This document shows, one piece after another, positions 16,898 through 34,116 of a stretch of 34,436 nucleotides of DNA. The notes under the pieces were generated by a model. That model did no database searches. It was not told the origin of the DNA and saw nothing but the letters and a program-made list of their open reading frames with translations. Made by a program: the position numbers and the translations under genes. This DNA is from Burkholderiales bacterium (GTDB lineage: Bacteria; Pseudomonadota; Gammaproteobacteria; Burkholderiales; Usitatibacteraceae). The number at the start of each line of letters is the position of its first letter. The stretch's first letter is position 1. Location: assembly GCA_043780475.1 (NCBI GenBank), contig JAYWCO010000451.1, forward strand, positions 1-34,436, read 5' to 3'.

Positions 16898-18100
16898 TCA
16901 AATTAATCCAATGTCTTTTGGCTGGGCACCGACGAAGATTTTTGTTAGCTGCGTATTGCTTAATCCGTACATACGCTGAAACAAGCCACCGAATACCGCG
17001 CGATATTCGTTTAGCACCGGATAATCACGATTCTGGAACAAAGATTTCTGTTCGACGGCGACATTTTCGCCAGCAATTTGCCCACCCTTAATCGATCCGC
17101 CCAGCACCCAATAGACGCTGCCATGCCCATGATCCGTACCACGGTTACCGTTCTCACGAAAAGTGCGGCCGAATTCGCTGACCACCACGACCACCGTGTT
17201 GCGCCATTCGTTACCCATTTCGTTGGCAAATGCGGCAAGTCCGCGACCAAGCTCATCAAAACGGCCAGCCAGATACCCAGTAGCGTTACCTTGGGCAACG
17301 TGGGTATCCCAACCGCCGACATCGACAAATCCAATGTTGTGCTTGTCCTTCATCAGCTTGGCGATGCGGCGCGCTTCCAGCTCAAAACCTTTTGCTGAAA
17401 TCGCATTGCGGCTCGCCCCGTCCATTTCAGCCGTCAATTCACGCATCACTTCATCACGAATAGTAAAACCCTCGCCAACGCGCTGCTCAAGCGGCGTTCC
17501 CCGGTACATCGCCGCAATCATTGCCGTTTGCCTGGCATCTAGCGCGGGTTTTGAAACAGAGCGCAACGCGGTGTTGGGGATTTGCATGCTGCCCTGTAGC
17601 ACGATGGGCAATTGATCCGTAAACGCAATGGCACCTTGGCTATTCAAAGTAACAGCAAGCCGATTCAGAAAGCCCGACTGATAATTGCGCCCCTGATTGA
17701 GTGGTTGGCCCAGTTCAATGCTGTCTTGCGTTTCAAAATGACTGCGCGACAGGTCGTCAATTCCGGCAAATGGGATAAAGGCGGCCTGTCCGGCAGTAAA
17801 CAGCGGATAAATCGATTCGCGCAGTGTGGGATGCAGCCCCCAATCTGTACTGAGCGGCAGTGCCGTATTGGCCACAGTGCCGGGTGCAGGAATGGCGATA
17901 TTCGGGCGTGCCTCATAGTAAAACTTGCTCGATATCGGTACCAGCAAGCTGGCTGCATCATAGCCACCTCGCATGAATACCACCAGCAAGCGGTTGCTGG
18001 TGGTCGGCGCGGCGAACAATCGCCCCACGCGCAGCGTAGAAGTGGCCGCATAAGCCGTCGCGGCTACAGCCGCGCATTTCAATAATTGACGACGATTCAT
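16898..18100 (-). CDS. DUF1501 family protein (sulfatase/phosphatase-like fold) with Tat signal (400 aa)
   Basis: Twin-arginine leader MNRRQLLKCAAVAATAYA. DUF1501-type motifs LVVFMRGGYDAASLL and DVGGWDTHVAQG. GGAGA RBS 8 nt upstream. Confidence 0.85.
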   Translation of the reverse strand: MNRRQLLKCAAVAATAYAATSTLRVGRLFAAPTTSNRLLVVFMRGGYDAASLLVPISSKFYYEARPNIAIPAPGTVANTALPLSTDWGLHPTLRESIYPLFTAGQAAFIPFAGIDDLSRSHFETQDSIELGQPLNQGRNYQSGFLNRLAVTLNSQGAIAFTDQLPIVLQGSMQIPNTALRSVSKPALDARQTAMIAAMYRGTPLEQRVGEGFTIRDEVMRELTAEMDGASRNAISAKGFELEARRIAKLMKDKHNIGFVDVGGWDTHVAQGNATGYLAGRFDELGRGLAAFANEMGNEWRNTVVVVVSEFGRTFRENGNRGTDHGHGSVYWVLGGSIKGGQIAGENVAVEQKSLFQNRDYPVLNEYRAVFGGLFQRMYGLSNTQLTKIFVGAQPKDIGLI

Positions 18101-18145
18101 CTCAACATCTCCGGGGACAATGACAGGTATTCATGCAGCGGTTAC

Positions 18146-19747
18146 TTACCGATACATCATTTCAGGCGCGGACAATAGCACCATATTCCATTCTTGCGGT
18201 GTGGCAGATTGTTCTAATGCCTTGCGCGTAGCCTGATTGAGGCTGCGTTCAATTTGATTGTAGTAAAGCGCATTGGCAAGTTGTGGGAAGGCTGGCTTTT
18301 CAACAGGCTGGGGCCCTTCCGTCTTAAATAGTCCAGCACTGCCTGAACCAATCGCCTTGGCAATTTCAAATCGGGTGTTCATCTGTCCCGGGCTGGCCCA
18401 TGCCGACTCAATCATCGAATAACCGTCTGGCGTTTGACGGCCAAACAGCGGTTGCCCCATGCGGTTTAGCCAATTTTGCATCGGGCCTGCGTTGAGAATT
18501 GGTTTGTCGTCGTAAGCCAACCGCACCGCCGACACCACATACTGCATCGGCGTTTTGAATTTATGGCCAAGCGAGGCGTTGAATTCATTGCTCGCAAACA
18601 GCGTCCTAAGCGTGGCTGAAATATCGCCATCAGTCTGCAAAAAAGTGACCGTCATCCGGTCAACGAGCGCAGCGGGCGGTTGGTCAGCGACAAAGTAAAT
18701 GGCGAGCTTGCTGCAAACGTAGCGCGCGGTTGACGGATGGCGCGCTAGCAAGCCAATAGCCTCATTGACTTCAGCAAGCCCACGCCCTTTTAATGTGCGT
18801 CCTAGCAGCAATTTGTCGCCATAGTCATGGCGATTCGGGTTGAATTCAAAAATGCCGCTACGCACATATTGGGCTGCAATTTCTTTGCGCACATTGGGTT
18901 TTGTAGTGCCCAGATTGACCCCTACTCCAGTCAGCACGCGTGCCAGCTCCTGCACGTCCTTCTGGCTGTAGCCGCCGCCAACGCCGAGCGTGTGCAGTTC
19001 CATCAGCTCACGAGCGTAATTTTCGTTGATACGGTTGACCGCATTTTGCTCATTGTCCAGATAACGGATCATTGCCGGATGAAACACTGTCGCGGTCAGC
19101 AGCTCGCGAAATTTGCCCAGGACATGCGGGCGAATAGCGGATTCTTCAAAATCGCCAATCATTGCGCGAATATTGTGCTTGCCCTGATGGATGCTGAAAT
19201 GATTCATCCAGAACCAGACCATTTGCTCCTGTAACTGGTTGGGCGAGTACACCGCGCGCATCAGTGCGCGCGTTGACGCTTCGCGGGCAACGCGGTTCAT
19301 CTCATTCTGATAAGCCTGCTGCGCCACTTTTTTGGCGTCGTCATCCTTGATGATGTCGGCGTCTTTACGACGTTGCTCCAGTTCCGCAACCAGCGACGGC
19401 ATGTCTTGTTTGACGATAGTCATATCGGTAATTTGCTGGCTGATCGCCGCTGGCAATGCCCGCTTTTGCGTCAATTGCGCATCGAGATAACGCGACACGC
19501 CAATCTGGTCAACTTGCTGCATCGTACTTGCATTCACACCCCACGTAATGCGATTAATGACGTCTAGTGGCTTGCCTGCCACGACAGCCAAGGCGCTCTG
19601 CATGGGCGGCTTGCTGGGCGCGTCGACAGTGGCGCAACCCGATAACGCTAACATTAGCAACAGTGCTCCACGCGGTAACGCACCTGACTTGCTCGACAGT
19701 TGCTCGAATCCAAGCAGTCGATTAAAACGGTGTAAAAAAATCAGCAT
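18146..19747 (-). CDS. DUF1800 family protein, probable lipoprotein (533 aa)
   Basis: Start at ATG 19747 with a GGAGA RBS. Lipobox LLMLALSG|C. DUF1800-type motif ELHTLGVGGGYSQKDVQELARVLTGVG. Paired with DUF1501 as is usual for these families. Confidence 0.8.
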   Translation of the reverse strand: MLIFLHRFNRLLGFEQLSSKSGALPRGALLLMLALSGCATVDAPSKPPMQSALAVVAGKPLDVINRITWGVNASTMQQVDQIGVSRYLDAQLTQKRALPAAISQQITDMTIVKQDMPSLVAELEQRRKDADIIKDDDAKKVAQQAYQNEMNRVAREASTRALMRAVYSPNQLQEQMVWFWMNHFSIHQGKHNIRAMIGDFEESAIRPHVLGKFRELLTATVFHPAMIRYLDNEQNAVNRINENYARELMELHTLGVGGGYSQKDVQELARVLTGVGVNLGTTKPNVRKEIAAQYVRSGIFEFNPNRHDYGDKLLLGRTLKGRGLAEVNEAIGLLARHPSTARYVCSKLAIYFVADQPPAALVDRMTVTFLQTDGDISATLRTLFASNEFNASLGHKFKTPMQYVVSAVRLAYDDKPILNAGPMQNWLNRMGQPLFGRQTPDGYSMIESAWASPGQMNTRFEIAKAIGSGSAGLFKTEGPQPVEKPAFPQLANALYYNQIERSLNQATRKALEQSATPQEWNMVLLSAPEMMYR

Positions 19748-19987
19748 AAATTCTCCGCATGAATCAGCATAAATCTCAAAATCAATGACTTGCCAGCAGC
19801 GCGCAATTGCCAAGAACATAGTTAACGCTAAAAACACCAGTGAAGTGCACACGAGTTGCAACAACTTATGACAACACTGGCAACGATGATGAACTTCCGT
19901 CGTTTGGTGTTCATCGTCTGCACGCTCACAAGGCGACCTTGCCCCTGTTTAACGTATCCCTTAACCAGGCCGGTTATGCGGTCTGTG

Positions 19988-20359
19988 TTATCTGATCCGC
20001 ATGCCTTGCTGCTTCAAACTGCATCGGACGACGTAGTCCAGCGCCCCGGTCAGCAGTAAAACAACGAGCAGGGTAGGGCACAGCATTTGCAGCGACTGGC
20101 AAATCGCGATCACTTTTCGGCGGTCGCCGCGATCGGCGAGTAAGCCATCTGCGAGCGTCAACAGCCAAATGGGCGCTCCCAAAGCAAATGCGTCTAGACC
20201 AATCAGAAACGACGAAGCGCCGAGACTCAATATCAGCCACGGCGGCGCCACTTGCTGTGCCCACGTGCTAATGTTGGCAAGCAGACTGGCGAACCAGAAA
20301 GTACCAAAGCGGCGGGTAAATATGAGGCTAGTCGATTCGCGAAAGGCAATCTTCTTCAT
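19988..20359 (-). pseudogene. 5' stump of an MFS transporter gene (EntS/MFS_3-like)
   Basis: MKKIAFRESTSLIFTRRFGTFWFASLLANISTWAQQVAPPWLILSLGASSFLIGLDAF...LADRGDRRKV matches the first 2-3 helices of MFS_3-type exporters. The frame terminates after about 123 codons, against the 400+ expected. Confidence 0.6.
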
Positions 20360-20634
20360 GACGATGCAAGCTAACACAGCACGAGCCTGTTGCTCTGTCG
20401 TTTACGCAACCGAGCCTAGTTTTTCTAAACGAAATCGCCAGATCGACCAACTCACAGCGTCAATCCCAAGCCTTCAACCGCGACAAAACTTTGTTGCGAC
20501 GCTCTGGGTTGAACCTAAACGTACCCGCTAATTTGCCAAATGGAGACAACGCGCCCACCGTTGTTTTTAATTCCTTGGGCAATCCTGAGCCATGCAAACT
20601 ATAAACTGCGGGTAGACTCACTTAGGGACTAATT

Positions 20635-20714
20635 TTAAGTATTCGTTTGTCAGTGCGGATTAACTGATCGCGGATTAAGTATTCGTTTGTCAGTGCGGAT
20701 TAACTGATCGCGGA
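20635..20714 (+). repeat. Perfect 40-bp tandem duplication (2 units)
   Basis: ttaagtattcgtttgtcagtgcggattaactgatcgcgga occurs at 20635-20674 and again at 20675-20714. Each unit carries two gcggatt sub-motifs. Confidence 0.95.
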
Positions 20715-21047: not shown

Positions 21048-21893
21048 TCACTTTACCACTGGCGCTTTGTGTTTCTTTTTTGTGGCCGGTGGACTCTTTT
21101 GCTCGGCCTCTTCCTTCGCTTCGGACGCTTTTTGCTTATCAATGCGGTGTTGTTCAACTTCCTTCGTTAATTCTTCTTTACGAGCTTCGATCTTCGCTTC
21201 GTTCATGGTCCGGCGATAGGCCTCCGGGGCGCGATCTACTTTCTTTGGTGGCTTTTTGGGGTCGTGTGACACATAGGCAAATTGCCCGGCATTGATGATG
21301 ACTTCGCCAGCGGGATTTTTGAGCGACGTACTGCCACTGTTTACTTTTTCATAGGTGCCCGGTTCGCCGCCAACAGCTTTTTCGCCTGGTCCCGGAATCG
21401 GGATGTGCAACGGTTCATGGTCAGTGCCCCGAATCCCAATCGTCGCCGAAGGTGTTCGGATCGCATAATGATTCGCGTTGTTCCGGCCAATCCAGCCGGT
21501 AATCGAGCGCATCGCGCCATAGGCCATTGACATGATCACGCCGTCGTCTTTATCGCCTTTAGCCCGATAAAACTCGACTAACACCTTCGAATTCGGGCGA
21601 AATGCCATGTAGCCGTGGTCGTCGGTACGAACATGCAATTCACCGTCACGCCCGGTCATGATGGTTTCGCCCTCAATGATCTTATCGTTAACGTGTACCA
21701 AGCGTGTTTGGCCTTTTGTGTCGATAACCGATACCTTGCCTTCCACCAATTCCACCACGCCAAATTCATTCTCAGCCCATGCCACCGGCGCGGCCACCAG
21801 GACACAACTTAAAATGAGTAAGCTGAATGTGCCGGTAAACCGGGCCACCACCGTCAAAAAAAGATTCTTTAAAAACATCGAGCGCAGACGCAT
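21048..21893 (-). CDS. Secreted FecR-domain protein with Lys/Glu-rich C-terminal tail (281 aa)
   Basis: Signal peptide ...LVAAPVAWA|EN. FecR-type beta-rich core (GKVSVIDTKGQTRLVHVNDKIIEGETIMTGRDGELHVRTDDHGYMAFRPNSKVLV). Charged coiled tail. AGGAG RBS 8 nt upstream. Confidence 0.75.
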   Translation of the reverse strand: MRLRSMFLKNLFLTVVARFTGTFSLLILSCVLVAAPVAWAENEFGVVELVEGKVSVIDTKGQTRLVHVNDKIIEGETIMTGRDGELHVRTDDHGYMAFRPNSKVLVEFYRAKGDKDDGVIMSMAYGAMRSITGWIGRNNANHYAIRTPSATIGIRGTDHEPLHIPIPGPGEKAVGGEPGTYEKVNSGSTSLKNPAGEVIINAGQFAYVSHDPKKPPKKVDRAPEAYRRTMNEAKIEARKEELTKEVEQHRIDKQKASEAKEEAEQKSPPATKKKHKAPVVK

Positions 21894-21933
21894 GATGGTG
21901 ACTCCTATAAAAACGACAGAAAATGAATACCGT

Positions 21934-22734
21934 TTAAAAATCGGATGAAATGGTCATACCAAAACCGTTATCGGGACTTTGCGCCGATCGCCCCGAAATG
22001 GCATAAATATCAACCTTAACGCCTTTGAACGGCTTGAAATTAATATAGTAAGTAACATCGCGCGATCGTGGTAAACCGTCCGCAATCGATCCACCCTCAC
22101 TGAAGGTTACGCCAACGGACGTCGTTTTACTAATACGATAACTGCCATCGAACGAGCCGTAAAAAGCATTTTTGAATCTTTGACCATCGGGCTTTCCGAC
22201 AAACGTATAGCCAACGGTCAATGCGCCATTAAAAGAGCCGAGTGCGTGCGACAAGACAGACTGAAATGAAAGATCATCCTTGCCAGACCCTAGGCCTTTG
22301 GCACTGGACGCAGTACTAAATTTCGCAATGCCGCCGAAATCAAGATCAACCCCATTGTCTTCTTCGGTCAGGAGATATCGGGTAACGCCGGCGGTGACAT
22401 CGCCGAGCCCGGATGCCTTCTGATCGGGGCCGACGATGACGGTGGGTCGCCGCCCCGGGATCGAGATAAGCCGTCCGGGCCCTTGTTGGTGAACATACGG
22501 AACAACGACATCGAACGAATAGTCGTCCACGTCATAGGTCACGGTCGTGGAGGTGATAGAGACGACGGAATATTGGCTTTGACCGTATTTGCCTTTTGAC
22601 CGGTCGTAGCCAATTTTCGCATTCAAGGTCGGCTCGTCCTTGGTTGTGGCCTCCTCCTCAATGGCAAAAGCGTTAGGAATTCCTATTGTCACCGCGATAA
22701 ACAAGCGCGCGCAAAATTTAAAAGTAGCGTTCAT
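21934..22734 (-). CDS. Outer-membrane beta-barrel protein (MetA-pathway/transporter-like family, tentative; 266 aa)
   Basis: Signal peptide ...PNAFA|IE. Alternating beta-strand pattern, SGLGDV motif, C-terminal ...MTISSDF ending in Phe. Confidence 0.65.
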   Translation of the reverse strand: MNATFKFCARLFIAVTIGIPNAFAIEEEATTKDEPTLNAKIGYDRSKGKYGQSQYSVVSITSTTVTYDVDDYSFDVVVPYVHQQGPGRLISIPGRRPTVIVGPDQKASGLGDVTAGVTRYLLTEEDNGVDLDFGGIAKFSTASSAKGLGSGKDDLSFQSVLSHALGSFNGALTVGYTFVGKPDGQRFKNAFYGSFDGSYRISKTTSVGVTFSEGGSIADGLPRSRDVTYYINFKPFKGVKVDIYAISGRSAQSPDNGFGMTISSDF

Positions 22735-22807
22735 TCAACCGTTCACATTCGTTAATACGTTAGTCGGAAAACAACAATACGGAGCTTTGTTTGGCGTCAA
22801 TTACCGC

Positions 22808-23026
22808 CTACACACGTCTCCGCAATCGGTGAGTCACGGTTCGCCGGTGATCGCGACGGCTTTTGATCGCGTCGTGCTGCGCTTTGGTGGCGTCGGGCTT
22901 TGTGACGCTGTCCTTATTTTTAACCTCTTTTGCGGCAGGGATTGGGGGCGGCGTTTCCTGAGCTTGCGTGAGTGTGTTAACACTAACGAGCAAGCCTGTC
23001 AAAATCAACAGCAGGTATTTTTTCAT
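22808..23026 (-). CDS. Small secreted Pro/Lys-rich basic peptide (72 aa)
   Basis: GGAGA RBS 8 nt before ATG 23026. Signal peptide MKKYLLLILTGLLVSVNTLTQA|QETPPPIPAAKEVKNKD..., with an Arg-rich tail. Confidence 0.5.
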   Translation of the reverse strand: MKKYLLLILTGLLVSVNTLTQAQETPPPIPAAKEVKNKDSVTKPDATKAQHDAIKSRRDHRRTVTHRLRRRV

Positions 23027-23155
23027 GATGTAAGTCTCCATTTGTTACAATATTTTAGATCGGAGGTGATGGTGTCGTAATAATATGTTGTTGTTGAGTT
23101 ATGAACAAACTTTTACAAATTTACTCATTCTCACGATTCAAAAAATAGAGGATTT

Positions 23156-23365
23156 ATGAAAATTCTAAATATTTTTGTTGCAACCCTGTTGACGAGCTTT
23201 GCGATGCAAGGTTGGGCTCAGACGCCAAAGCCGCCCGAGCCACCGGGCAAAACAGTGGCTAAAACAGACGCCAAAGAAGAGAAAAAGGACAAAGAAGAAG
23301 AAAAAGACAAGGACGAGAAAAAAACGAAAGCCCATAAAAAGCATACGCATAAACACAAGGAATAA
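23156..23365 (+). CDS. Small secreted Lys/Glu/His-rich peptide (69 aa), paralogous in layout to 22808-23026
   Basis: AGAGGA RBS. Signal peptide MKILNIFVATLLTSFAMQGWA|QTPKPPEPPGK..., then a KEEKKDKEEEKDKDEKK tract and the tail KAHKKHTHKHKE. Confidence 0.55.
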   Translation: MKILNIFVATLLTSFAMQGWAQTPKPPEPPGKTVAKTDAKEEKKDKEEEKDKDEKKTKAHKKHTHKHKE

Positions 23366-23468
23366 CGTGTCGCCTGCTTGCAACAGGGGAAAGCATCTGT
23401 CGTTGACATCCATCGAGCCCCTGTTAGAGTATGTAATCATTCATTAATTCTCATTGCAAGGCGTTAGC

Positions 23469-25127
23469 ATGACGACTGGTCTTGCCAAGGAAAAGCGAGA
23501 GCGCCTGATGTATCGCGTTGTTAAGCGATTTGACAGGCGCTTTTTTCTTTACCTCGCTGTCTTCGCGTCATTGTTGGTTGCCGTCGATGTCAGTACGACC
23601 AAATTGGTCGGAGGAATGGAACAGGCAACTTTTGATTGGTTGATGAAGCATCGCATTCACTATGCGGCGCCCGATCGTGACATTGTCATTGTCGATATCG
23701 ATGATGCAAGCATCAAAGAGTTGTCACTGCGATACGGTCGGTGGCCTTGGCCGCGCGAGGTGATTGGTGGACTGCTTGAAAAACTGGCCGTAGCCAAGCC
23801 TCGTGCAATTGTTTTTGATATTGCTTTTAGTGAACCGGATAAATTAAACCCGGTTTCCGATCAGCACTTTCTGGAGCAATTACGAAAATCAGGGAATGTT
23901 TTTTTCCCGATGGTGCTGTTAGATGAGACCGGCGTTAGCAGCATCCCGCTGCGATCCTTGGCCAGTGCCAAGCGTTTGTCGGCAACCGCCTTGGACAGCG
24001 AAAAAACTTCGGTTTTATTGCCGTTCTTCCATGATGAACTTAAGCCAACCCAAATTGGCACGAACAACATTACGCCCGATAAAGATGGCATCATCCGCCG
24101 CTTTGCGCCACAGCGCGAGACGAACGGTTGGGGAATACCGTCAATTGCGCTCCAAGTCGCGCGATCGTTGAACTTTCCGCCCTTGCAGAACCCAAATTTT
24201 CTGGTCAATTGGCGGGGCCCACCGTACTCCTATTCCTCGGCGTCGTTTAGCCATATTTTGTCATCACCCATCGAGGGACCCGACTCGCATCTCAAAGAAG
24301 ATTTCGGGGGTAAAATTGTCATTATTGGCTCGACCGCGGCGAGTTTGTTCGACATCAAAGCTTCACCGATGGCGCGCATCCATCCGGGTGTCGAGATGCT
24401 CGCGACCGTGGTTGATAATATTAAAAATAATGATCCGCTTCATGAGCTCCCATCGTCCGTCTACGCATTTGCCGCGATAGCATTCATCTTCGTACTGGCC
24501 TTCACATTGTATTCAGAGCGCAGTGCCATGGTGACGGATTGGCTGTTTATTTTGTTGCAATTCGTGGCCATCGGTGTCTGCTACCTGTTGCTCAATCTGG
24601 GCAACACCTATCTTGATATGACCGTGCCTATTGCGTTTTCAGTCGGCTTCTTCACGGTGGCACGTATCTATGGCTACTACCTTTCGGAATACCGGGCAAT
24701 GCAAATTTCACCCGATATCAAGCTTCAATACGGGAGTCGTTATCGGTTGTCAGTAATGGCAATTCGATTTGCCTCCGGGAATACCGTCTCTCGAAAAAAG
24801 ATCGAGCAATTGCTGCGCAAAACCCTTGCGTCGTCGGAGCTCAAAGCAAATGTTGAGATGCATCCGTTTGGATCGTCGCGATTGCTCGAGAACCTTGTCC
24901 CTAATCTGTTTTTAATTTCCTGGATTACGATCGAGGATGTCACAACCGACGCAAAAATTGAAATGGAAACGTATCGAATCACTGGTTTTTTAAGAAATAC
25001 TTATGACGAAAAACATTTCACAACGAGCACCGAATCGGGAACATTGATTGTCGACGAACAGGCAAACGTGATTCAAGGACAAGATATCGCGATGGCGGCG
25101 ATAAATTCGATCACCTCGCCACGATAA
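23469..25127 (+). CDS. CHASE2-domain membrane sensor with an uncharacterised ~147-aa cytoplasmic C-terminal domain (552 aa)
   Basis: N-terminal TM, then CHASE2 motifs IVIVDIDDASIKELSLRYGRWPWPR and KIVIIGSTAASLFDIKASP, then three TM helices. The tail has no kinase, GGDEF/EAL, cyclase metal-binding Asp or protease motif visible. Confidence 0.8.
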   Translation: MTTGLAKEKRERLMYRVVKRFDRRFFLYLAVFASLLVAVDVSTTKLVGGMEQATFDWLMKHRIHYAAPDRDIVIVDIDDASIKELSLRYGRWPWPREVIGGLLEKLAVAKPRAIVFDIAFSEPDKLNPVSDQHFLEQLRKSGNVFFPMVLLDETGVSSIPLRSLASAKRLSATALDSEKTSVLLPFFHDELKPTQIGTNNITPDKDGIIRRFAPQRETNGWGIPSIALQVARSLNFPPLQNPNFLVNWRGPPYSYSSASFSHILSSPIEGPDSHLKEDFGGKIVIIGSTAASLFDIKASPMARIHPGVEMLATVVDNIKNNDPLHELPSSVYAFAAIAFIFVLAFTLYSERSAMVTDWLFILLQFVAIGVCYLLLNLGNTYLDMTVPIAFSVGFFTVARIYGYYLSEYRAMQISPDIKLQYGSRYRLSVMAIRFASGNTVSRKKIEQLLRKTLASSELKANVEMHPFGSSRLLENLVPNLFLISWITIEDVTTDAKIEMETYRITGFLRNTYDEKHFTTSTESGTLIVDEQANVIQGQDIAMAAINSITSPR

Positions 25128-25256: not shown

Positions 25257-25370
25257 GCCGCCGACATCAAATTGACCCACCTGCCGATTTTGATTGCCCC
25301 ACTCCAAGCCCCCGCGAACCGTTGCCTATTCAGGGATTACGCCAATTTGGGGTAGGTTGGTCAAACAGCG
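25257..25370 (-). repeat. Right copy of the long imperfect inverted repeat (partner at 15163-15294)
   Basis: See the left copy. Motif copies lie at 25261-25280, 25284-25302 and 25351-25370 (the last inverted relative to the first two). Confidence 0.8.
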
Positions 25371-25452
25371 TGCAACACTTTCCAGTTTAGGGGTGGAAAC
25401 AGCGTCCAATAGTTTCCACCCCTAAACTGGAAAGTGTTGCACGCTGTTTGAC
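25360..25452. repeat. Perfect palindrome: 41-bp arms separated by 11 nt
   Basis: 25360-25400 (gtcaaacagcgtgcaacactttccagtttaggggtggaaac) is the exact reverse complement of 25412-25452. The spacer is agcgtccaata. Each arm also holds a small internal hairpin, TTTCCA-N9-TGGAAA. Confidence 0.95.
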
Positions 25453-25496: not shown

Positions 25497-26013
25497 TTGG
25501 CGCCGACCGCGAAAGGCGAAAAAGTGTACGCGCTATTGCGCGAGACCTTGCGCAAAGAAAAGAAAATCGGCATCGCCTATGTGGTGATCGCGACCAAGCA
25601 GCATCTGGCTGCGTTGAAGCGCGTGTTCGATATCGACATCGAGCGCTGCCCGCACTGCGGCGGGCAACTGAAGCTCATCGCGGCCATTGAGGATGCGGCC
25701 GCCATCGCCCGCATCCTCACGCATCTGGGGCTGGCCGCGCAGCCGCCACCGCGCGCGCCGGCGAGACGGGTGGATCTGTTTCAGGCGGCGTGAGACGTAA
25801 AACTGGACTGGACTTTGACAGGGCTGGGGGAGGTGTGCGGACGGCGCTCGGGCAAACGCTCAGATGGAGTGGAATTCAGGCGCGCTGAGTGCGGAAATTG
25901 TCTGCGAGGTTAACTGAGCCATGGGCTTTTAGAGGTTGCGCGCGCGTTTGACCGCTCAACGATCATCGGATACATTCAGGATGCTTGAAAAGGGGCGTTT
26001 GAAATTCCTATAC
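25497..26013 (+). mobile_element. 5'-truncated IS91/ISCR-family element: transposase C-terminal stump (25497-25793) plus oriIS-like end
   Basis: ...LKRVFDIDIERCPHCGGQLKLIAAIEDAAAIARILTHLGLAAQPPPRAPARRVDLFQAA is the characteristic C-terminus of IS91-family rolling-circle transposases. GGCGTTTGAAATTCCTATAC at 25994-26013, about 200 bp after the stop, resembles the IS91/ISCR oriIS consensus as I recall it. Most of the transposase is missing. Confidence 0.75.
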
Positions 26014-27493: not shown

Positions 27494-27973
27494 GAAAGAG
27501 ATTATTTTCAGCGCGGAAACTCAACGCCCAGCCGTGCGGTGGTGCAAAGCGCGGGCCAAGGGTTTCGTTTAAAAGCGAAAGTTATACAAGACAAGTTTGC
27601 TGAATTCGGCCCAGCCACTCACTTATTGCTTCGATATACGCGGGCGTTGATCACACAAATGGCGCAGACAGCAGTCTGCAACCGCCATCATTCCCTTGAC
27701 AAGCAACTGTGTCGTTGGCTATTACTGAGTCTTGATCGCCTGTCGGGTAATGAGTTAGTGATGACCCAGGAATTGATTGCCAACATGCTCGGCGTTCGCC
27801 GAGAAGGCGTCACGGAAGCGGCCGCCAAGTTGCAGAAGGCTGGCTTAATTAGCTATACACGTGGGCGCATAGAGGTGCTGAATCGCGACGGGCTGGAGAA
27901 GCGGTCATGTGAGTGTTATGCAGTGGTCAAAGCAGAATACGACCGCTTGCTTCCGAATCAGATAGCCGTCTGA
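27494..27973 (+). pseudogene. Crp/Fnr-family regulator lacking most of its cNMP-binding domain
   Basis: The C-terminal HTH part is intact (LCRWLLLSLDRLSGNELVMTQELIANMLGVRREGVTEAAAKLQKAGLISYTRGRIEVL). Homology (..GNSTPSRAVVQSAGQGFRLKAKV..) runs up to an in-frame TGA at 27491. Only a GTG at 27539 is available as a start. Confidence 0.65.
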
Positions 27974-28146: not shown

Positions 28147-28386
28147 GTGAGAGATAAGGGCGGTGCGTTTATGACCGCTAACACGATGCTGGATGCCAGA
28201 ACAGTTGAGTATCCAAAACGCGAAACGCTTGCTTCATATTGTGGTTTGCCTATTTTGGACAGCGAAGGCAGAATTCTTGGAACATTGTGTCACTACGATG
28301 TGATGCCGCGTGATCCCGAACAAATTGATTTATCACTAATGTTGTCGGTTGCCGTTACGCTGTTGAAAAGCCACTTCGTAGATTGA
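28147..28386 (+). pseudogene. C-terminal half of a small GAF-domain protein (probable stump)
   Basis: ...ASYCGLPILDSEGRILGTLCHYDVMPRDPEQIDLSLM resembles the end of stand-alone GAF proteins of about 160 aa. Upstream there are only short broken ORFs. Confidence 0.45.
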
Positions 28387-28454: not shown

Positions 28455-31400
28455 TTACCTAAAATCCCGACTACTGGTTGCCAACGCCCCCAATAGCTTC
28501 GAGTGATCCACCAACATCCCCGCCATCACATACACCGTTGTCGCTTCACGCTCAATCGTGCCGTAAACCGTAAGCAAACGTGATTGCGTCAGCGCCACCC
28601 TGAAACGCTCCGCAATATTGCGCCACACTGTGATATTGATCAGACCATACTCATCTTCCAGCGTCACAAACACCGCCCCTGAAGCCGTATCAGGCCGCTG
28701 ACGATTTAACACCACACCGCTGGTTCGCATCAACTGCCCCTGACGTGCATACTGAATATCATCAGAGGATTTCAATCGCATCGCTTTCAGTTTGGGCCGC
28801 AACAACTTCAACGGATGGCTACGCAGCGTCAAGCCAACCCGGTTGTAATCCGCCAACACATCTTCACCCTCGGTAGGCGCCAGCAATGAAGGCTGTCGCG
28901 TGTCTTGTTCCGCGCGCTGTGCGCATTGTGAACCACGCAGCAACGGCGGTAATCGCTCTGTGCCAAGTGTTGCCCACATCGCGTCCCGCCGGTGTCCGGC
29001 CAGTGACCGAAACGCATCCGCTTCGGCTAGAGCATTCATATCTTTGGCGTTTAACTGTGCCCGCTCTCTCAGCTCATCAAGACTGAGGCACGGGTTGGCG
29101 CGACGTGCCTCGACCATTCTCATGCCCCCCTCTGCTGACAACCCAGCAATACTCTTTAATCCCAGTCGAATCGCTGCCTGGCCTTTTGTATCGGCCACCA
29201 GGGTGCTGTCGTAATCGCTCATCAGCACATCCACCGGATACACCTCCACCCCATGTCGTTGCACGTCGTACACAATCTGGGCGGGTGCATAAAAGCCCAT
29301 CGGCTGACTGTTCAGCAGGCCCGCCGCGAATGCAGCCGGCTCATAGCACTTCAGCCATGCCGTCACATAGGCCAGCATCGCGAAACTCGCAGCGTGACTT
29401 TCCGGAAACCCATAATCCCCAAATCCCTTCACCATCTCAAAAATCTGTTCCGCATAGCCTGCTGCATACCCGCGCGCGAGCATGCCCTCAACGAGCTTGT
29501 CGCGAAACGGCTCCAATCCGTCTTTACGTTTCCACGCCGCCATTGCTCGACGAAGTTGGTCGGCCTCGCCCGGTGTAAAGCCCGCCGCCTTGATCGCAAT
29601 GGCCATTACCTGTTCCTGGAAAATCGTCACCCCCAGGGTGCGCTCCAAAATATATTTGATGTCGTCCGATGGGTAAGTGACGGCTTCAGTCCCCGCACGC
29701 CGACGAAGATAGGGATGCACCATGCCGCCCTTGATCGGGCCGGGACGCACAATCGCAACCTGGATGACAATATCGTAGAAGGTGCGCGGGCGCAGGGTGG
29801 GCAAACGTGCCATTTGTGCGCGGCTCTCAACCTGAAATAAACCAATGGTGTCAGCTACGCACAGCATGTCATAGACCTTTGGGTCTTCCGGTGGCATATC
29901 TTGCACCCGCAGGTTCGTACCCCGATAGCCATTGACCAGGTCAATGGATTTGCGAATCGCGGTCATCACCCCCAGCGCCAACACATCCACCTTCATCAAG
30001 CCCAGCACATCGAGGTCGTATTTATCCCATTGGATTACGGTGCGGCCCTCCATGCGTGCGGGCTCTACGGGCACTAAGCGGGTGAGCTTGCGGTTATCCA
30101 GCACAAAGCCGCCGGCGTGTTGGCCCTGGTGGCGAGGGAATGAGCGAATATCATCTGCCAGTGCCATCAGCAGCTTTACCTTGGCGTTGTCCGCATCAAA
30201 GCCCGCTTCGCTCAGTCTATCGTCCGGAATACCCGACTCATAACGTAGCGTCATGGCGGCAGATAGTTTATCGGTCTGATCCATTGAGAACCCCAGTGCT
30301 TTGCCCACATCACGCATCGCGCCCTTGGCGTGATAGGTCGATACGGTAGCGGTAATCGCGGCGCGATCACGCCCGTATTTCTGGAATAGATATTGAATCA
30401 CTTCTTCGCGCCGCTCATGCTCAAAGTCCACATCAATATCCGGCGGCTCGTTGCGTTCGCGGCTGATAAACCGTTCAAACAAAACCTGCATGCGACCCGG
30501 ATCAACCTCGGTAATGCCCAAGCAATAACAGACGGCCGAGTTAGCGGCGGAGCCGCGACCCTGGCACATGATGCCTTGGTCACGGGCAAATTTAACGATG
30601 TCATAGACGGTCAGGAAATAGGCCTCGTATTGCATCTCCTGGATGAGCGCCAGCTCATATTCAATAATGCCGCGCACCTTCTCCGGCAAACCAGCGGGGT
30701 AGCGCATCTTCACGCCGTCATAGGTCAATCGCCGCAGATAGGACGTGGGTGACTCGCCCATGGGCACCACTTCTTCAGGATACTCATAGCGAATCTGACT
30801 TAAACAAAACACGCAGCGCTGCACAATCGCCAGCGTTTCAATTAACAAGTCAGGCGGATAAATATTACTTAAGCGGCCAATGGCGCGCAGATAACGCTCG
30901 CCGTTCGGATAAAGCGCGGCACGGCATTCGGCCACCGGTTTGCCGACCCGAATCGCGGTCAACACATTCTGCAGGGCCTGGCGCGGGCGGATATGCATAT
31001 GCACATCCCCCGCCGCAACCAGTTTCAAGCCATAGACGCGGGCGATTTCCCGTAGCCGCTGCAACCACCATTTATCATCCGCGCCACGGAGTAACTCCAC
31101 CGCGATCCAGCAACGTCCCGCAAAGTGTTGCGCCAGCCAGGTTGCTTGTTCGACATAGTCAGCACCGAGGACAGAGTCTTCTCTCGGACACCAGATCAGC
31201 AGACAATCATCAATGCTGTCTGGCAGATCAGGGCGGCTCAATTGATAAGCGCCTTTCTCAGCCCGGCTGCGGGCCAGGGTGATGAGTTCACACATATTGC
31301 CGTAGCCATTCAAATTGGTTGCCAGTAGCACTAGCTTTAAGCCGTCCAGCAGCGTGATTTCAGTGCCGATGATGAGCTTGATGTTTAAATCCCGTGCCTG

Positions 31401-31562
31401 CGCATAGGCACGCACTACGCCTGCCACTGAGCACTCATCGGTGATGGCAACCGCGTGATAACCCAGCTTTGATGCTTGCTTGACCATTTCTTCCGGATGC
31501 GAGGCACCACGCAAAAACGTGTAGTTGGTCAGGCAATGCAGCTCGGCGTAGTGAGGAAGCAT
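28455..31562 (-). CDS. dnaE2: Error-prone DNA polymerase III alpha-like subunit DnaE2 (ImuC), 1035 aa
   Basis: MLPHYAELHCLTNYTFLRGASHPEEMV PHP-domain N-terminus and full Pol III alpha architecture. Located downstream of imuA-imuB. Confidence 0.95.
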   Translation of the reverse strand: MLPHYAELHCLTNYTFLRGASHPEEMVKQASKLGYHAVAITDECSVAGVVRAYAQARDLNIKLIIGTEITLLDGLKLVLLATNLNGYGNMCELITLARSRAEKGAYQLSRPDLPDSIDDCLLIWCPREDSVLGADYVEQATWLAQHFAGRCWIAVELLRGADDKWWLQRLREIARVYGLKLVAAGDVHMHIRPRQALQNVLTAIRVGKPVAECRAALYPNGERYLRAIGRLSNIYPPDLLIETLAIVQRCVFCLSQIRYEYPEEVVPMGESPTSYLRRLTYDGVKMRYPAGLPEKVRGIIEYELALIQEMQYEAYFLTVYDIVKFARDQGIMCQGRGSAANSAVCYCLGITEVDPGRMQVLFERFISRERNEPPDIDVDFEHERREEVIQYLFQKYGRDRAAITATVSTYHAKGAMRDVGKALGFSMDQTDKLSAAMTLRYESGIPDDRLSEAGFDADNAKVKLLMALADDIRSFPRHQGQHAGGFVLDNRKLTRLVPVEPARMEGRTVIQWDKYDLDVLGLMKVDVLALGVMTAIRKSIDLVNGYRGTNLRVQDMPPEDPKVYDMLCVADTIGLFQVESRAQMARLPTLRPRTFYDIVIQVAIVRPGPIKGGMVHPYLRRRAGTEAVTYPSDDIKYILERTLGVTIFQEQVMAIAIKAAGFTPGEADQLRRAMAAWKRKDGLEPFRDKLVEGMLARGYAAGYAEQIFEMVKGFGDYGFPESHAASFAMLAYVTAWLKCYEPAAFAAGLLNSQPMGFYAPAQIVYDVQRHGVEVYPVDVLMSDYDSTLVADTKGQAAIRLGLKSIAGLSAEGGMRMVEARRANPCLSLDELRERAQLNAKDMNALAEADAFRSLAGHRRDAMWATLGTERLPPLLRGSQCAQRAEQDTRQPSLLAPTEGEDVLADYNRVGLTLRSHPLKLLRPKLKAMRLKSSDDIQYARQGQLMRTSGVVLNRQRPDTASGAVFVTLEDEYGLINITVWRNIAERFRVALTQSRLLTVYGTIEREATTVYVMAGMLVDHSKLLGALATSSRDFR

Positions 31563-31619
31563 GGGTTAATAATCGGTGTGGTGAATGCGAGCGTGGGGAT
31601 GAATAGGTGTAATCTGCGG

Positions 31620-33203
31620 TTACGCAAAGTAGCCGTGTAAATGCCAGCTATTGAGATCACGTAAATCCTGATACAGCCACATGGTTTCGTGGTGGGGATT
31701 ACGGCCCACGTAATAGTCACGCAGGGCCGGTTGTCCATCCCACCAACCGGTTTCAATGCGTTCTGGCCCGGCAATAATGTCAATGCGGCCATGGCAGAGT
31801 GGCACCCCGCCATCGAGCATAAGTTTGCGCGGTGTCGGCAGTAAAAATAGCGGACGTGGACGATTCAAAAAAACATCATTCGCAGTAGATGTCATGTTGG
31901 CTGTTGCGTTGGCTGTTGCGTTGGTTATTACGGGAGCCTTCATATTTGCGCTGCCCGCTTTTTTGCGCGCCCCTGATTTCCACGGGACTTGAGATTCAAT
32001 CGCCGTCGTCGATTGCCACGATTGTTCAGGCCGATGGTCTGCTACTGCTTGCAGTCGATAAACCCGGTCGCTACCCAAGCGCGCCGTAAGTTTATCGATG
32101 AGTTGAACCCAGCTATCGGACTGAACCTGCGGGTCGGGCAACCAACTATTACTCGCCTCAATGAATGGCAGCAATCGCTCTACCTCAATGGCCATAGCCA
32201 GTACCTTCGCCGGTAACTGCGCTTGGCTCAGCCGTTCGCGGGCAAGTGACAACAAGCGCTCGGCATGGCGTTCAGGTTTGGCTACCCCCACTGTTATGGT
32301 GGCCCGCTGTTTATTCGACAGCGTCAATACCAAACGATAACCTTGCACGCCCGCACCGCGCGCGCGCAGGAATCCTTCCATCTCAGTCAATAGTCGCTTA
32401 AGCGGAAACAGTAGCGCCATCGCATCGTTTACCTCAAACCCAAACTCAGTACGGGCGCGATATGTTTCAGGCATGGCAAAGCTGGCTCGTGGGTCCGGCA
32501 AGCGGCCGATGATGCGTTGCAGGTCGCTCCAACGTTCCGGCCCAAACCGTTTAGCAAATCCTTCCGAGGGCAACGCCAGACAGTCAGCAAACCGCACAAT
32601 CCCCAACCCGGATAGTTTGCTCAATACATCATGCGGCCAATCCAGTAACGCCAATGGCAAGTCGGCGAGTCGCGCCTCAATATCCGCCACCACCGTGCAC
32701 GCGCGTACCGGATAGCCGTGATGTCGTGCTTTGGCAAACAGCCATGCCGCCAGCGGGGTCGGTGCCACGCCGCAGGACACCTGATACCCCAGCTCATGGG
32801 TGCCACGCCGTAATTTGCCCAGCAATACCGATAAGCCGTCGTGCATCATCAAGGTACTGCTGATTTCCATCAAAATACCTTCATGCGCCTGGATGGAAAC
32901 CGACGGGGTGAACTGACATGCCCAGCACGCAAAGTTATGAACGGCTGCCGTTTCTTTGTTTATCTGGCGAGACACGATGGCCAAATCATTGGCCAAATCA
33001 TTGACCAAAACGCGCGAGGACGCGATGGTCATACCGACCTGGATACCGCATTCGAGTGCCGCACGATTGGCCGCATGGACTACAGGGCGATGATCGGGGC
33101 CGCTGGAAATAATGAGCGGGGCCGTATTACCGGATTCGGCTACGACCGCACGCTCGGCAATTTGCAGAGGCAATTCGGGTAAGTAAAGCGCGATCCAGAG
33201 CAT
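31620..33203 (-). CDS. imuB: ImuB, Y-family polymerase-like protein (527 aa)
   Basis: MLWIALYLPELPLQ... is a typical ImuB N-terminus. Position is between imuA and dnaE2. Confidence 0.9.
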   Translation of the reverse strand: MLWIALYLPELPLQIAERAVVAESGNTAPLIISSGPDHRPVVHAANRAALECGIQVGMTIASSRVLVNDLANDLAIVSRQINKETAAVHNFACWACQFTPSVSIQAHEGILMEISSTLMMHDGLSVLLGKLRRGTHELGYQVSCGVAPTPLAAWLFAKARHHGYPVRACTVVADIEARLADLPLALLDWPHDVLSKLSGLGIVRFADCLALPSEGFAKRFGPERWSDLQRIIGRLPDPRASFAMPETYRARTEFGFEVNDAMALLFPLKRLLTEMEGFLRARGAGVQGYRLVLTLSNKQRATITVGVAKPERHAERLLSLARERLSQAQLPAKVLAMAIEVERLLPFIEASNSWLPDPQVQSDSWVQLIDKLTARLGSDRVYRLQAVADHRPEQSWQSTTAIESQVPWKSGARKKAGSANMKAPVITNATANATANMTSTANDVFLNRPRPLFLLPTPRKLMLDGGVPLCHGRIDIIAGPERIETGWWDGQPALRDYYVGRNPHHETMWLYQDLRDLNSWHLHGYFA

Positions 33204-33219
33204 GACCAGTTCAACAAAA

Positions 33220-34116
33220 TTAGCGTGGCGCAGAGGATGCGCGGTGCGCCTGTTGGGTTGATACCGCTATGGTTGCAGTTGTTGCAATCGTTGCTATTGG
33301 TGTTGGCGCTGGCGCTAAGGTTTCGGGCGAGCGAGGTGGTGGTTGCAATGGTTGCAATGGGCGTAATGGGCGCAATGGATTGGGAGGGCGTTCGTTGGTT
33401 GCGTTGGTTGCATTGACTGCATTGGCGGTGTTGATAGGAGCAGTCTTATTCGCATGCACGGTATGTCGGCTACGTTGCGCCCAATGAGGGGGATAAACAT
33501 TGAGTGCAAGCGTGTCGGCCATTAGCGCCGCACGGCGCTTGACCAGATGGACGAGTGTTTCACCGCCTTGACCGGTCACCGTTAAGCGAGTGGGTGCGGG
33601 TGAAGCCTGCACACCGACTTGCAAGGGTCGATACAATACCAAGCTTGTACGACCAGTTTCAGCGGCGAGCTGCAAACGACGTAGCGCCTGATAATTCACA
33701 CCGCTGCGCGCCTGCATATTCCAGCCCACCACCATGCCACAGGCACCGGATCGCGCCGCCTGTTCCATCACCCATAACTGGTCAGCAACCTCGGCTCGCA
33801 CAATGATGACCTGCTGCAGGTTAATACCCTTGGCTTCCCACGCAAGGGGTAATGGAATATAGGGTGGAGCTACCAACACAATGCCGCGTCCTGACCGGCT
33901 GGTTTCTCGAAGTGCCGGCATCAGTATGGATAATTCGCCCACGCCTTGCTCATTACACAGCAATTCCGTGAGCGCGCCTTGCTCCCAACCCTGATCAGGC
34001 AGCGCCTCATCCAACGCGGCAAAGCCAGTCTTGATTACCGTCCGCGTGCGCGCCAGCACTTGGCCAATGCGCCAGATATCGGGTCGTTGCAGGAGCGTGT
34101 TGAGGGAGACGTTCAT
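33220..34116 (-). CDS. imuA: ImuA (RecA/SulA-like translesion synthesis protein) with a ~95-aa low-complexity C-terminal tail (298 aa)
   Basis: ...RPDIWRIGQ...GFAALDEALPDQGWEQGALTELL...GVGELSILMPAL is ImuA-type. It is the first gene of the cassette and is preceded by a LexA box. Confidence 0.85.
   Translation of the reverse strand: MNVSLNTLLQRPDIWRIGQVLARTRTVIKTGFAALDEALPDQGWEQGALTELLCNEQGVGELSILMPALRETSRSGRGIVLVAPPYIPLPLAWEAKGINLQQVIIVRAEVADQLWVMEQAARSGACGMVVGWNMQARSGVNYQALRRLQLAAETGRTSLVLYRPLQVGVQASPAPTRLTVTGQGGETLVHLVKRRAALMADTLALNVYPPHWAQRSRHTVHANKTAPINTANAVNATNATNERPPNPLRPLRPLQPLQPPPRSPETLAPAPTPIATIATTATIAVSTQQAHRASSAPR

Follow-up and report, generated by a model that had tools for sequence, protein, structure and literature searches.

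A conserved chromosomal envelope cassette of two secreted peptides, an outer-membrane barrel, a FecR-domain protein and a CHASE2 protein in Burkholderiales

Introduction

Here we describe a conserved chromosomal envelope cassette in the genome of a Burkholderiales bacterium of the family Usitatibacteraceae (assembly GCA_043780475.1, contig JAYWCO010000451.1). The window, by which we mean the whole stretch of DNA that was analysed, is 34,436 nucleotides long. Within it lie five genes that encode two secreted peptides (pepM and pepP), an outer-membrane beta-barrel protein (OMP), a secreted FecR-domain protein, and an inner-membrane protein with a periplasmic CHASE2 domain; together, the five products span all three layers of the envelope. 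The cassette is a new combination of known families—an initial annotation, made from the sequence, had suggested that the gene set was undescribed, and we found no description of it in the literature searched.

Gene content of the locus

The five open reading frames (ORFs) claimed by the initial annotation were each found at the positions given in Table 1. Sequence inspection revealed AXA-type signal peptides on four of the products, namely the FecR protein, the OMP, pepM, and pepP. Purifying selection acts on all five genes, as judged by the ratio of nonsynonymous to synonymous substitution rates (dN/dS) between the window and contig L017, at a dS of about 0.9-1.3. The two small ORFs had been proposed as genes; they are conserved, with dN/dS of 0.09-0.22 at a dS of about 1, and hence pepM and pepP are real genes. 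The window was scanned for all ORFs of at least 150 amino acids (aa) that are not antisense to longer ORFs, plus several smaller ones. As previously annotated, no gene for an extracytoplasmic function (ECF) sigma factor, TonB-dependent receptor, cyclase, GGDEF/EAL protein, or kinase was found among the larger ORFs scanned.

Table 1. Features of the five-gene locus, with positions in the window; dN/dS values are from the comparison with contig L017
Feature	Positions	Strand	Basis	dN/dS
Secreted FecR-domain protein, 281 aa	21048-21893	-	PF04773	0.085
OMP, 266 aa, FapF/COG4313 type	21934-22734	-	Predicted structure	0.07
pepM, secreted disordered peptide, 72 aa	22808-23026	-	Alignment, dN/dS	0.22
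Divergent control region common to both arms, 129 bp	23027-23155	none	30% GC	
pepP, secreted disordered Lys/Asp/Glu-rich peptide, 69 aa	23156-23365	+	dN/dS, composition	0.09
CHASE2 inner-membrane protein, 552 aa	23469-25127	+	PF05226, E 3e-54	0.07
Periplasmic CHASE2 domain	23583-24500	+	Near-invariant family motifs	
Cytoplasmic C-terminal domain of the CHASE2 protein	24690-25124	+	AlphaFold2 (AF2) model	

Recurrence in other loci

The set co-occurs outside this strain, among uncultured Burkholderiales, in independent contigs and in different genomic contexts (Table 2). An all-against-all ORF comparison of 14 loci returned only four recurring families: the FecR protein and the OMP (14/14 each), CHASE2 (7/14), and pepM-type peptides; pepP is present in six of the 14 core loci. 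The OMP and FecR genes are adjacent in all 14. No regulator, enzyme, sigma factor, or TonB gene recurs across these loci—an ECF sigma factor (L008) and a TonB_C gene (L006) occur once each and are unconserved. The constant core is therefore peptide-OMP-FecR, with pepP and CHASE2 as frequent additions. Read from gene order, the core is a predicted pepM-OMP-FecR operon; pepP is often divergently transcribed, and CHASE2 lies alongside in one sub-branch. The initial annotation had pictured a two-arm module, and this stands insofar as the set is self-contained, conserved, and devoid of any recognisable enzymatic or DNA-binding output; however, the arms are not equals, since the minus arm is constant and CHASE2 is found in half of the loci.

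Table 2. Loci with a CHASE2 relative of the window protein
Locus	CHASE2 identity to window	Arrangement
L017	89%	Same divergent five-gene layout (metagenome contig)
L018	55%	Same divergent five-gene layout (metagenome contig)
L002/L003	46%	CHASE2 convergent with FecR-OMP-pepM; pepP still divergent from pepM
L007	41%	CHASE2, two FecR genes, pepM-like gene, OMP, MipA
L020	40%	FecR divergent from CHASE2-OMP(PF13557)-pepM-like-FecR
L019	39%	MipA-FecR divergent from CHASE2-DUF2147, plus a basic peptide gene followed by an OMP homologue
L021	38%	Among CHASE2-cyclase, MlaE/MlaD, and caspase genes
L001, L004, L005, L022	35-41%	With SH3_3 and M48 peptidase genes

A secreted FecR gene adjoins the CHASE2 gene in the window and in L002, L007, L017, L018, L019, and L020; among the CHASE2 relatives looked up, each with at least 39% identity has FecR and OMP-like genes next to it. 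Starting from the OMP gave L006, L008/L012, L009-L011, and L013-L016, which have the OMP gene beside the FecR gene in every case, and a pepM-type gene beside OMP/FecR in all except L013, where there is a variant peptide gene alone, and the short contig L016. Each scan used a single OMP peptide pattern, so the yields—three loci in GTDB species genomes and five in metagenomes—are lower bounds. Three relatives come from genome assemblies, all of them Burkholderiales/Betaproteobacteria metagenome-assembled genomes.

Other CHASE2-only genes have different neighbours. In L001 (8001-11070), L004 (8001-11053), L005, and L022, the gene is followed by those for the SH3_3 protein and the M48 peptidase, which are contiguous with CHASE2 in three loci and about 3 kb off in L022; judging by this gene order, CHASE2-SH3_3-M48 may be a separate, widespread, and unstudied CHASE2 module. 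In L021 (1047-10254), the CHASE2-only gene lies between an MlaE gene and a caspase-like (Peptidase_C14/DUF4384) gene, with a CHASE2-guanylate-cyclase gene upstream and genes for MlaD and a CHAT protein nearby.

Properties of the encoded proteins

The 266-aa protein had been called a beta-barrel, and its AF2 model (29 relatives in the alignment) is a barrel with a predicted local distance difference test (pLDDT) score of 86.5. Its 13 strand elements begin at residue 36 and run through to the C-terminal Phe; FapF has 12 strands, and the exact strand count of the OMP is thus uncertain. The signal peptide ends AFA/I, leaving about 11 mature, acidic residues (IEEEATTKDEPT) ahead of strand 1, and the N-terminus is unconserved in the family; consequently, the protein has no plug or coiled coil. 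The family has an invariant acidic motif, TRYLL-EED-G-DLD (alignment A2). Foldseek against the PDB placed FapF first (5o67/5o65/5o68; E 6e-12, TMq 0.70) and the COG4313 channel Pput2725 second (4rl8; E 1.9e-9, TMq 0.66), with general porins at a TMq of about 0.4; sequence identity to FapF is 13-15%. COG4313 channels are implicated in the uptake of hydrophobic small molecules. The window OMP has no PF13557 match; six of 29 close relatives do (best E 5.7e-11). Profile searches of solved structures with the OMP and with CHASE2 found nothing, and neither the OMP nor the two peptides have a significant Pfam or NCBIfam match—pepP alone has sub-threshold ones.

In the FecR protein, the domain named by the initial annotation is present (PF04773, E 6.3e-7, 30.2 bits against a cutoff of 24), and PF04773 matches all 11 of its relatives. 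It is the sole significant Pfam match; no LysM or anti-sigma domain was detected. After the signal peptide (VAWA/E) come a conserved fold (about 170 aa), then a charged helix, and finally a basic tail rich in Lys. Alignment A5 contains the invariant motifs TGWIG, IRGTDHE, and PGTY(D/E)KV; the charged helix is conserved and the basic end that follows it is variable. The N-terminal sandwich matches the LapA retention module NF033682 (E 2.8e-8, 34 bits, below the cutoff of 50), and the family profile matches PDB entry 5ix9, the N-terminal domain of MpIBP (E 6.7e-5). An exhaustive search of 1.84 billion representatives gave 289 proteins at E of 1e-30 or less, some of them 500-1,258 aa long with the module at the N-terminus; the FecR module is therefore broader than the cassette and often heads larger proteins. 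In P0245, P0290, and P0213, which are 500-1,100 aa long, an N-terminal module of about 230 aa, charged helix included, is followed by a long C-terminal extension, and these may be surface proteins. The extensions of P0245 and P0290 contain tandem repeats of about 90 aa (DTTPDAFSF...GG-Y-INGG-FTS).

The CHASE2 domain was likewise confirmed (184.7 bits against a cutoff of 26.3); its motifs VDID, GRWPWPR, VFDI-FS-PD, GSTA, and HPGVE are near-invariant in the family. The gene has an alternative TTG start at 23454. A hydropathy scan flagged a first transmembrane (TM) helix at about residues 23-47 and two hydrophobic ranges within residues 326-379, after the domain. We read the topology as N-in, TM1, periplasmic domain, three TM helices, and a cytoplasmic tail of about 140 aa, with the third post-domain helix and the N-in orientation read from the sequence rather than flagged by the scan. 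The AF2 model of the tail (pLDDT 88.6) has a beta-alpha-beta-beta-alpha-beta-alpha, ferredoxin-like fold. Foldseek returned no PDB match at E of 1e-3 or better; the leading matches were the GGDEF protein 3ezu (E 1.7e-3, TMq 0.55), the class III cyclase Ma1120 (TMq 0.43-0.46), and dimeric alpha+beta barrels.

Conservation of the tail is poor (9-26% identity, one invariant Trp); the would-be catalytic and metal-binding Asp positions are not conserved, and there are no catalytic motifs. We rejected homology of the tail to a cyclase or GGDEF domain because neither the window protein nor any of 46 relatives has a Pfam match there, profile searching of the PDB returned nothing, and the hhalign match to a CHASE2-cyclase domain (probability 0.08%, E 0.63) lacks significance; what is left is a weak resemblance in fold. 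The initial annotation was thus right that CHASE2 has no recognisable output, since the tail has no family assignment and a non-catalytic fold. It does not hold, however, that this is an oddity of the locus: there are more than 1,368 CHASE2 relatives of about 550-570 aa and, among the matches listed (n = 120), all are CHASE2-only in Pfam. The absent output is therefore a trait of a large family.

The start of pepM could be the ATG at 23026 (72 aa) or, in a longer ORF, the ATG at 23041; we prefer the former because GGAGAC lies 7 nt upstream of it and the L017 orthologue has no upstream ATG. Both peptides have the common layout previously noted—an AXA signal peptide (TQA/Q in pepM, GWA/Q in pepP) followed by a start rich in Pro, low-complexity sequence with many charged residues, and a basic tail at the C-terminus. 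The pepM C-terminus is a conserved 18-residue Arg/His-rich motif, KSRRDHRRTVTHRLRRRV. Among pepM relatives, the middle is variable and of low complexity and these last 18 residues are conserved, with the family consensus RK-RR[DE]HR[KR]-V-HR[LQ]RR, or in full R/K-K-x-R-R-D/E-H-R-K/R-x-V-x-H-R-L/Q-R-R (alignment A3). A profile search of 5.8 billion proteins gave 35 clusters of 69-109 aa, none of them named. Mature pepM, which is Sec-exported and strongly cationic, has an isoelectric point of 11.3; the net charges of the tails are about +8 (pepM), +6 (pepP), and +7 (FecR protein), and the OMP is acidic overall.

Genes like pepP occur in the window, L017, L018, L002, L008/L012, and L009; in their products the signal peptide is followed by a start rich in Pro, a middle rich in Lys, Asp, and Glu, and a His/Lys tail, which in the window reads KAHKKHTHKHKE. 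In composition pepP is similar to Asr, and the Asr model NF033636 matches it at E 1.3e-3 and 19.5 bits, failing the cutoff of 50. A weak match to chryseobasin (E 0.014) raised the possibility of a precursor of a ribosomally synthesised and post-translationally modified peptide, which we dropped, as no modifying-enzyme gene recurs in any locus. Locus L009 (410-3368) has two pepM copies, one upstream of the OMP gene and one convergent after the FecR gene, and a pepP-like gene that is longer and encodes Lys/Asp/Ala repeats.

The shared intergenic region is AT-rich and of the length first reported; its segment GAGTCTCC-TTTGTTACAAT is conserved in L017 and L018. A promoter and terminator scan scored no better than on shuffled sequence, so promoter positions are not established. 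Within that same limit, the top promoter-like site of the region, TTGACA-16-TAGAGT with a TG, lies in the 103-bp gap between pepP and CHASE2 (23366-23468), and on this basis CHASE2 may be transcribed separately from pepP. The gap also contains an 8-bp inverted repeat, AACAGGGG ... CCCCTGTT, spotted by eye.

Comparison with known systems

The S. (Sinorhizobium) meliloti genes cyaD1 and smc02177 are presumably neighbours. SMc02177 is described as a FecR-domain protein in the paper on the CHASE2 cyclase CyaD1 (PMC5498481); Burkholderiales have operons of a response regulator, a LysM-FecR protein, and a CHASE2 kinase, and Pseudomonas aeruginosa has a two-gene FecR/CHASE2-kinase operon (PMC5192318). 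The initial annotation had treated the missing ECF sigma factor and TonB-dependent receptor as an anomaly, but secreted FecR proteins are already documented beside CHASE2 receptors in these two settings; a secreted FecR protein with no detected anti-sigma domain is of this known CHASE2-operon type, and the absence is therefore not anomalous. In the Burkholderia 'BiofilmReg' set (response regulator, LysM-FecR, CHASE2 histidine kinase, and DUF4136), as in the cassette, a secreted FecR gene adjoins the CHASE2 gene. The cassette differs from such operons in that it has no response regulator, its FecR protein lacks LysM, and its CHASE2 protein carries neither a kinase nor a cyclase domain; in turn, it adds an outer-membrane barrel and two conserved peptides.

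FapF, the closest structural match of the OMP, is the outer-membrane polypeptide transporter of the Fap functional-amyloid system of Pseudomonas. Its barrel has 12 strands, a plug, and a coiled coil on the periplasmic side; unfolded polypeptides from the same operon, exported by Sec, pass through it (PMC5557850). The cassette OMP has neither the N-terminal coiled coil nor the plug helix, the window and related loci contain no fapA-E homologues, whether for amyloid subunits or for the FapD peptidase, and the candidate cargo here is a short cationic peptide rather than an amyloid repeat protein. The COG4313/PF13557 (Phenol_MetA_deg) channels are the second-best structural match, and some relatives of the OMP pass PF13557; the window OMP itself lacks both a PF13557 match and the plug segment, and this family is tied to the uptake of hydrophobic compounds, not to FecR or peptide genes.

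The CHASE2 cyclases of S. meliloti answer a very basic, non-ribosomal form of the ribosomal protein uL2, and require the outer-membrane barrel NsrA (PMC7529298, PMC13001267). NsrA-CyaK/CyaD1/D2 thus resembles the cassette in combining an outer-membrane barrel, CHASE2 receptors, and a basic unfolded polypeptide; in contrast, NsrA is about 1,200 aa and unrelated in size to the cassette OMP, the ligand is foreign, and the output is cyclic AMP.

In FecA-FecR-FecI, a FecR-domain protein likewise stands between an outer-membrane protein and an inner-membrane or cytoplasmic step. In the cassette FecR protein, however, we read the only hydrophobic segment at the N-terminus as a signal peptide that is cleaved, and the protein has no detected anti-sigma domain; the cassette has no STN domain, and an ECF sigma factor or TonB-dependent receptor is neither present among the window ORFs scanned nor conserved across the loci. 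The N-terminal beta-sandwich of the FecR protein resembles the LapA/MpIBP retention module in sequence, and 5ix9 has served as the template for a LapA module seated under an outer-membrane pore with a flexible segment threading through (bioRxiv 10.1101/198937). Here the protein is small and Sec-exported, and no type I secretion system, LapG, or LapD genes were found in the window. Lastly, pepP has the layout of Asr, with a signal peptide, a Thr/Pro/Ala start, and His/Lys-rich repeats, in a different genomic context. By their defining features, then, the cassette is not a Fec, Fap, LapA-type adhesin, or Asr system.

Proposed mechanism and alternatives

We propose that the locus encodes a trans-envelope cassette in which a FapF-like pore would handle the co-encoded cationic, disordered peptides, and the FecR protein would couple this pore to CHASE2—a reading that we hold tentatively, as a good possibility that stops short of probable. 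The barrel would be a cation-selective, polypeptide-conducting pore, and the co-encoded basic peptides would be bound by it, exported through it, or act as its gate. The FecR-domain protein would serve as an adaptor where the pore opens into the periplasm, and would also touch the periplasmic CHASE2 domain, as is thought for CHASE2 kinases and cyclases; CHASE2 would then relay the state of pore and peptide over the inner membrane to a protein partner of its tail, with no second messenger made. In its favour is the match of charges, basic tails on pepM, pepP, and the FecR protein against an acidic OMP with an invariant acidic motif. The domain and structural matches of the parts, the linkage of the genes across loci, the purifying selection on both peptides, and the precedents of FapF and of operons pairing FecR with CHASE2 also speak for it. 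Several findings weigh against it. FapF and the COG4313 channel score almost equally for the OMP in Foldseek, so the fold does not establish polypeptide transport, and the OMP lacks the coiled coil and plug of FapF. The likeness of the FecR protein to the retention module falls below the curated cutoff. Finally, in the loci found through the OMP, which are unbiased for CHASE2, CHASE2 is nearby in one (L007) of about seven with adequate flanks; it follows that the core must be capable of functioning with no CHASE2 gene next to it.

A variant of this reading, which we consider doubtful, is a trans-envelope relay of a new kind whose peptide ligand or gate is self-encoded, such that the plug-less pore would be closed or occupied in trans, either by the Arg-rich C-terminus of pepM or by a threaded FecR tail, and that CHASE2 would read this occupancy through the FecR protein and relay it to a non-catalytic, cyclase-like domain. 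If the FecR tail were threaded, its retention-module-like N-domain would stay in the periplasm. Should a pore occupied in trans be correct, cationic disordered polypeptides would be natural ligands of CHASE2 systems, matching uL2/NsrA in S. meliloti.

Sensing of the Fec kind offers another account, in which the OMP would bind or take up an external small molecule, as a receptor or as a channel of the sort proposed for COG4313, the FecR protein relays its occupancy to CHASE2, and the peptides are accessory modulators or chaperones. The near-equal standing of the COG4313 channel 4rl8 and FapF as structural matches is in keeping with this, as are the PF13557 matches among OMP relatives; the Fec paradigm itself relays through a periplasmic FecR domain, and operons of FecR with CHASE2 are known. 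Yet there is no detected anti-sigma domain and no ECF sigma factor or TonB-dependent receptor, present or conserved, the OMP has no N-terminal plug of the FapF kind, and the basic-motif peptide gene beside the OMP gene in every locus is left unexplained; we consider this account unlikely, though one with some real weight. Rather unlikely, in our view, is a buffer against acid or metal stress, with Asr-like periplasmic peptides, the OMP as a cation pore, and FecR/CHASE2 regulating, sensing, or incidental. The weak Asr match of pepP, its Lys-rich composition and the H-x-x-H-x-H-x-H pattern of its tail, a kdp operon adjoining the L020 locus, and the invariant D-H-E residues of the FecR family, which could bind metal, all fit such a role; however, the Asr score is far under its cutoff, the conserved peptide is pepM, which is Arg-rich and not His-rich, and no reason is offered for the strict peptide-OMP-FecR linkage.

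The tail could instead be a degenerate cyclase or GGDEF domain that pairs with a catalytic CHASE2 cyclase or GGDEF protein encoded elsewhere, making a nucleotide messenger the output. GGDEF and class III cyclase structures are among its top Foldseek matches, hhalign aligns beta3 and the H-x-G-x-I strand with the IGD and GIHTG strands of cyclases, several relatives are labelled 'adenylate cyclase' by the Joint Genome Institute, and in L021 the CHASE2-only gene is two genes downstream of the CHASE2-guanylate-cyclase gene. That alignment is the non-significant one given above, though, and with no Pfam match in 46 relatives, unconserved metal-binding Asp positions, generic dimeric ferredoxin-like proteins that match the tail as well as cyclases do, and no cyclase gene among the window ORFs scanned, we regard such pairing as improbable. 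Chance adjacency, or debris of a horizontally acquired island in which the small ORFs are not genes and the products do not cooperate, would suit the GC content of the module (0.49 against 0.54 for the window) and the truncated MFS gene and Ku/ISCR fragment on its flanks. It is already contradicted by recurrence over 14 loci—on divergent contigs and in different genomic contexts—and by purifying selection on all five genes; no bounding repeats or plasmid match were found either, and we give it hardly any credence.

Significance

The signals recognised by CHASE2 domains are described as unknown in the Pfam text quoted in PMC5192318, and a full-text literature search found no more than about 68 papers that mention CHASE2. 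The cassette puts CHASE2 in a compact, conserved set with a candidate periplasmic partner in the FecR protein, a candidate outer-membrane partner in the FapF-like pore, and candidate peptide ligands, and may therefore offer a testable partner set for a poorly understood sensor; all of its products are small enough for joint expression and testing. There is a parallel in S. meliloti, where the CHASE2 signal perception that has been studied also pairs an outer-membrane barrel with a basic unfolded polypeptide; the cassette differs in having no catalytic output, a small FapF-type OMP, and self-encoded basic polypeptides. It further suggests that FapF-type barrels may handle peptides outside amyloid systems, and draws attention to an unstudied family of more than 1,300 CHASE2 proteins, in which a non-catalytic domain of ferredoxin-like fold takes the output position.

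Mobility and flanking DNA

The initial annotation had considered the module possibly mobile. Its lower GC content, the gene fragments around it, and the differing genomic contexts of its relatives agree with acquisition; the core-chromosome setting does not agree with mobility, and neither do the results of searches for direct or inverted repeats bounding the module and for a plasmid DNA match, both of which were negative. A plasmid protein search gave two remote 'transporter' matches only. We therefore rejected a plasmid or mobile element: the cassette may be of horizontal origin, although it does not amount to a recognisable mobile element. A role in anti-phage defence was dropped as well, since PADLOC models matched none of the five proteins.

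The rest of the window is ordinary core chromosome, and includes rpoN, lptB/A/C, type II secretion genes with a secretin, dsbD, a DUF1800/DUF1501 pair, and an imuB-dnaE2 cluster; no Rfam families or tRNAs were found across it. The DUF1501 and DUF1800 pair (16898-19864, minus strand) adjoins the cassette, and among the loci compared does so only in the window and in L008 (3650-6371)/L012, where it comes directly after pepP. The pairs of the window and L008/L012 are 59-62% identical and the OMPs 54%; the proximity could reflect a link in function or synteny that has been retained. A truncated gene (19988-20377, minus strand) for a 129-aa N-terminal fragment of an MFS_3/EntS-like transporter lies between DUF1800 and the module, and the gene-poor gap from this fragment to the FecR gene contains a perfect tandem duplication of a 40-nt unit (TTAAGTATTCGTTTGTCAGTGCGGATTAACTGATCGCGGA x2, 20635-20714).

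On the other side, about 230 bp past the CHASE2 stop, lies an inverted repeat without mismatches (25360-25452; arms of 41 nt, loop of 11 nt), which could be a mobile-element end or a large hairpin. It precedes a 98-aa ORF (25497-25793, plus strand) in which a Ku beta-barrel fragment (PF02735) is joined to a C-terminal fragment of an ISCR clade Ia transposase (NF052416); this looks like a gene remnant. Further on are a 451-aa secreted protein with collagen-like Gly-X-Y repeats (PF01391; 26097-27452, minus strand), which has weak matches to Lcl and Scl adhesin models and a GC content of 0.69, far above the rest of the window, and two plus-strand genes that may be remnants—one for a 144-aa Crp-type helix-turn-helix protein with no detected cyclic-nucleotide-binding domain (27539-27973), the other for a 79-aa GAF fragment (28147-28386). 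The error-prone polymerase cluster (28455-34116, minus strand) encodes a DnaE2-like protein (1035 aa) and an ImuB-like protein of the IMS family (527 aa); a 298-aa gene without a Pfam match occupies the position expected for imuA.

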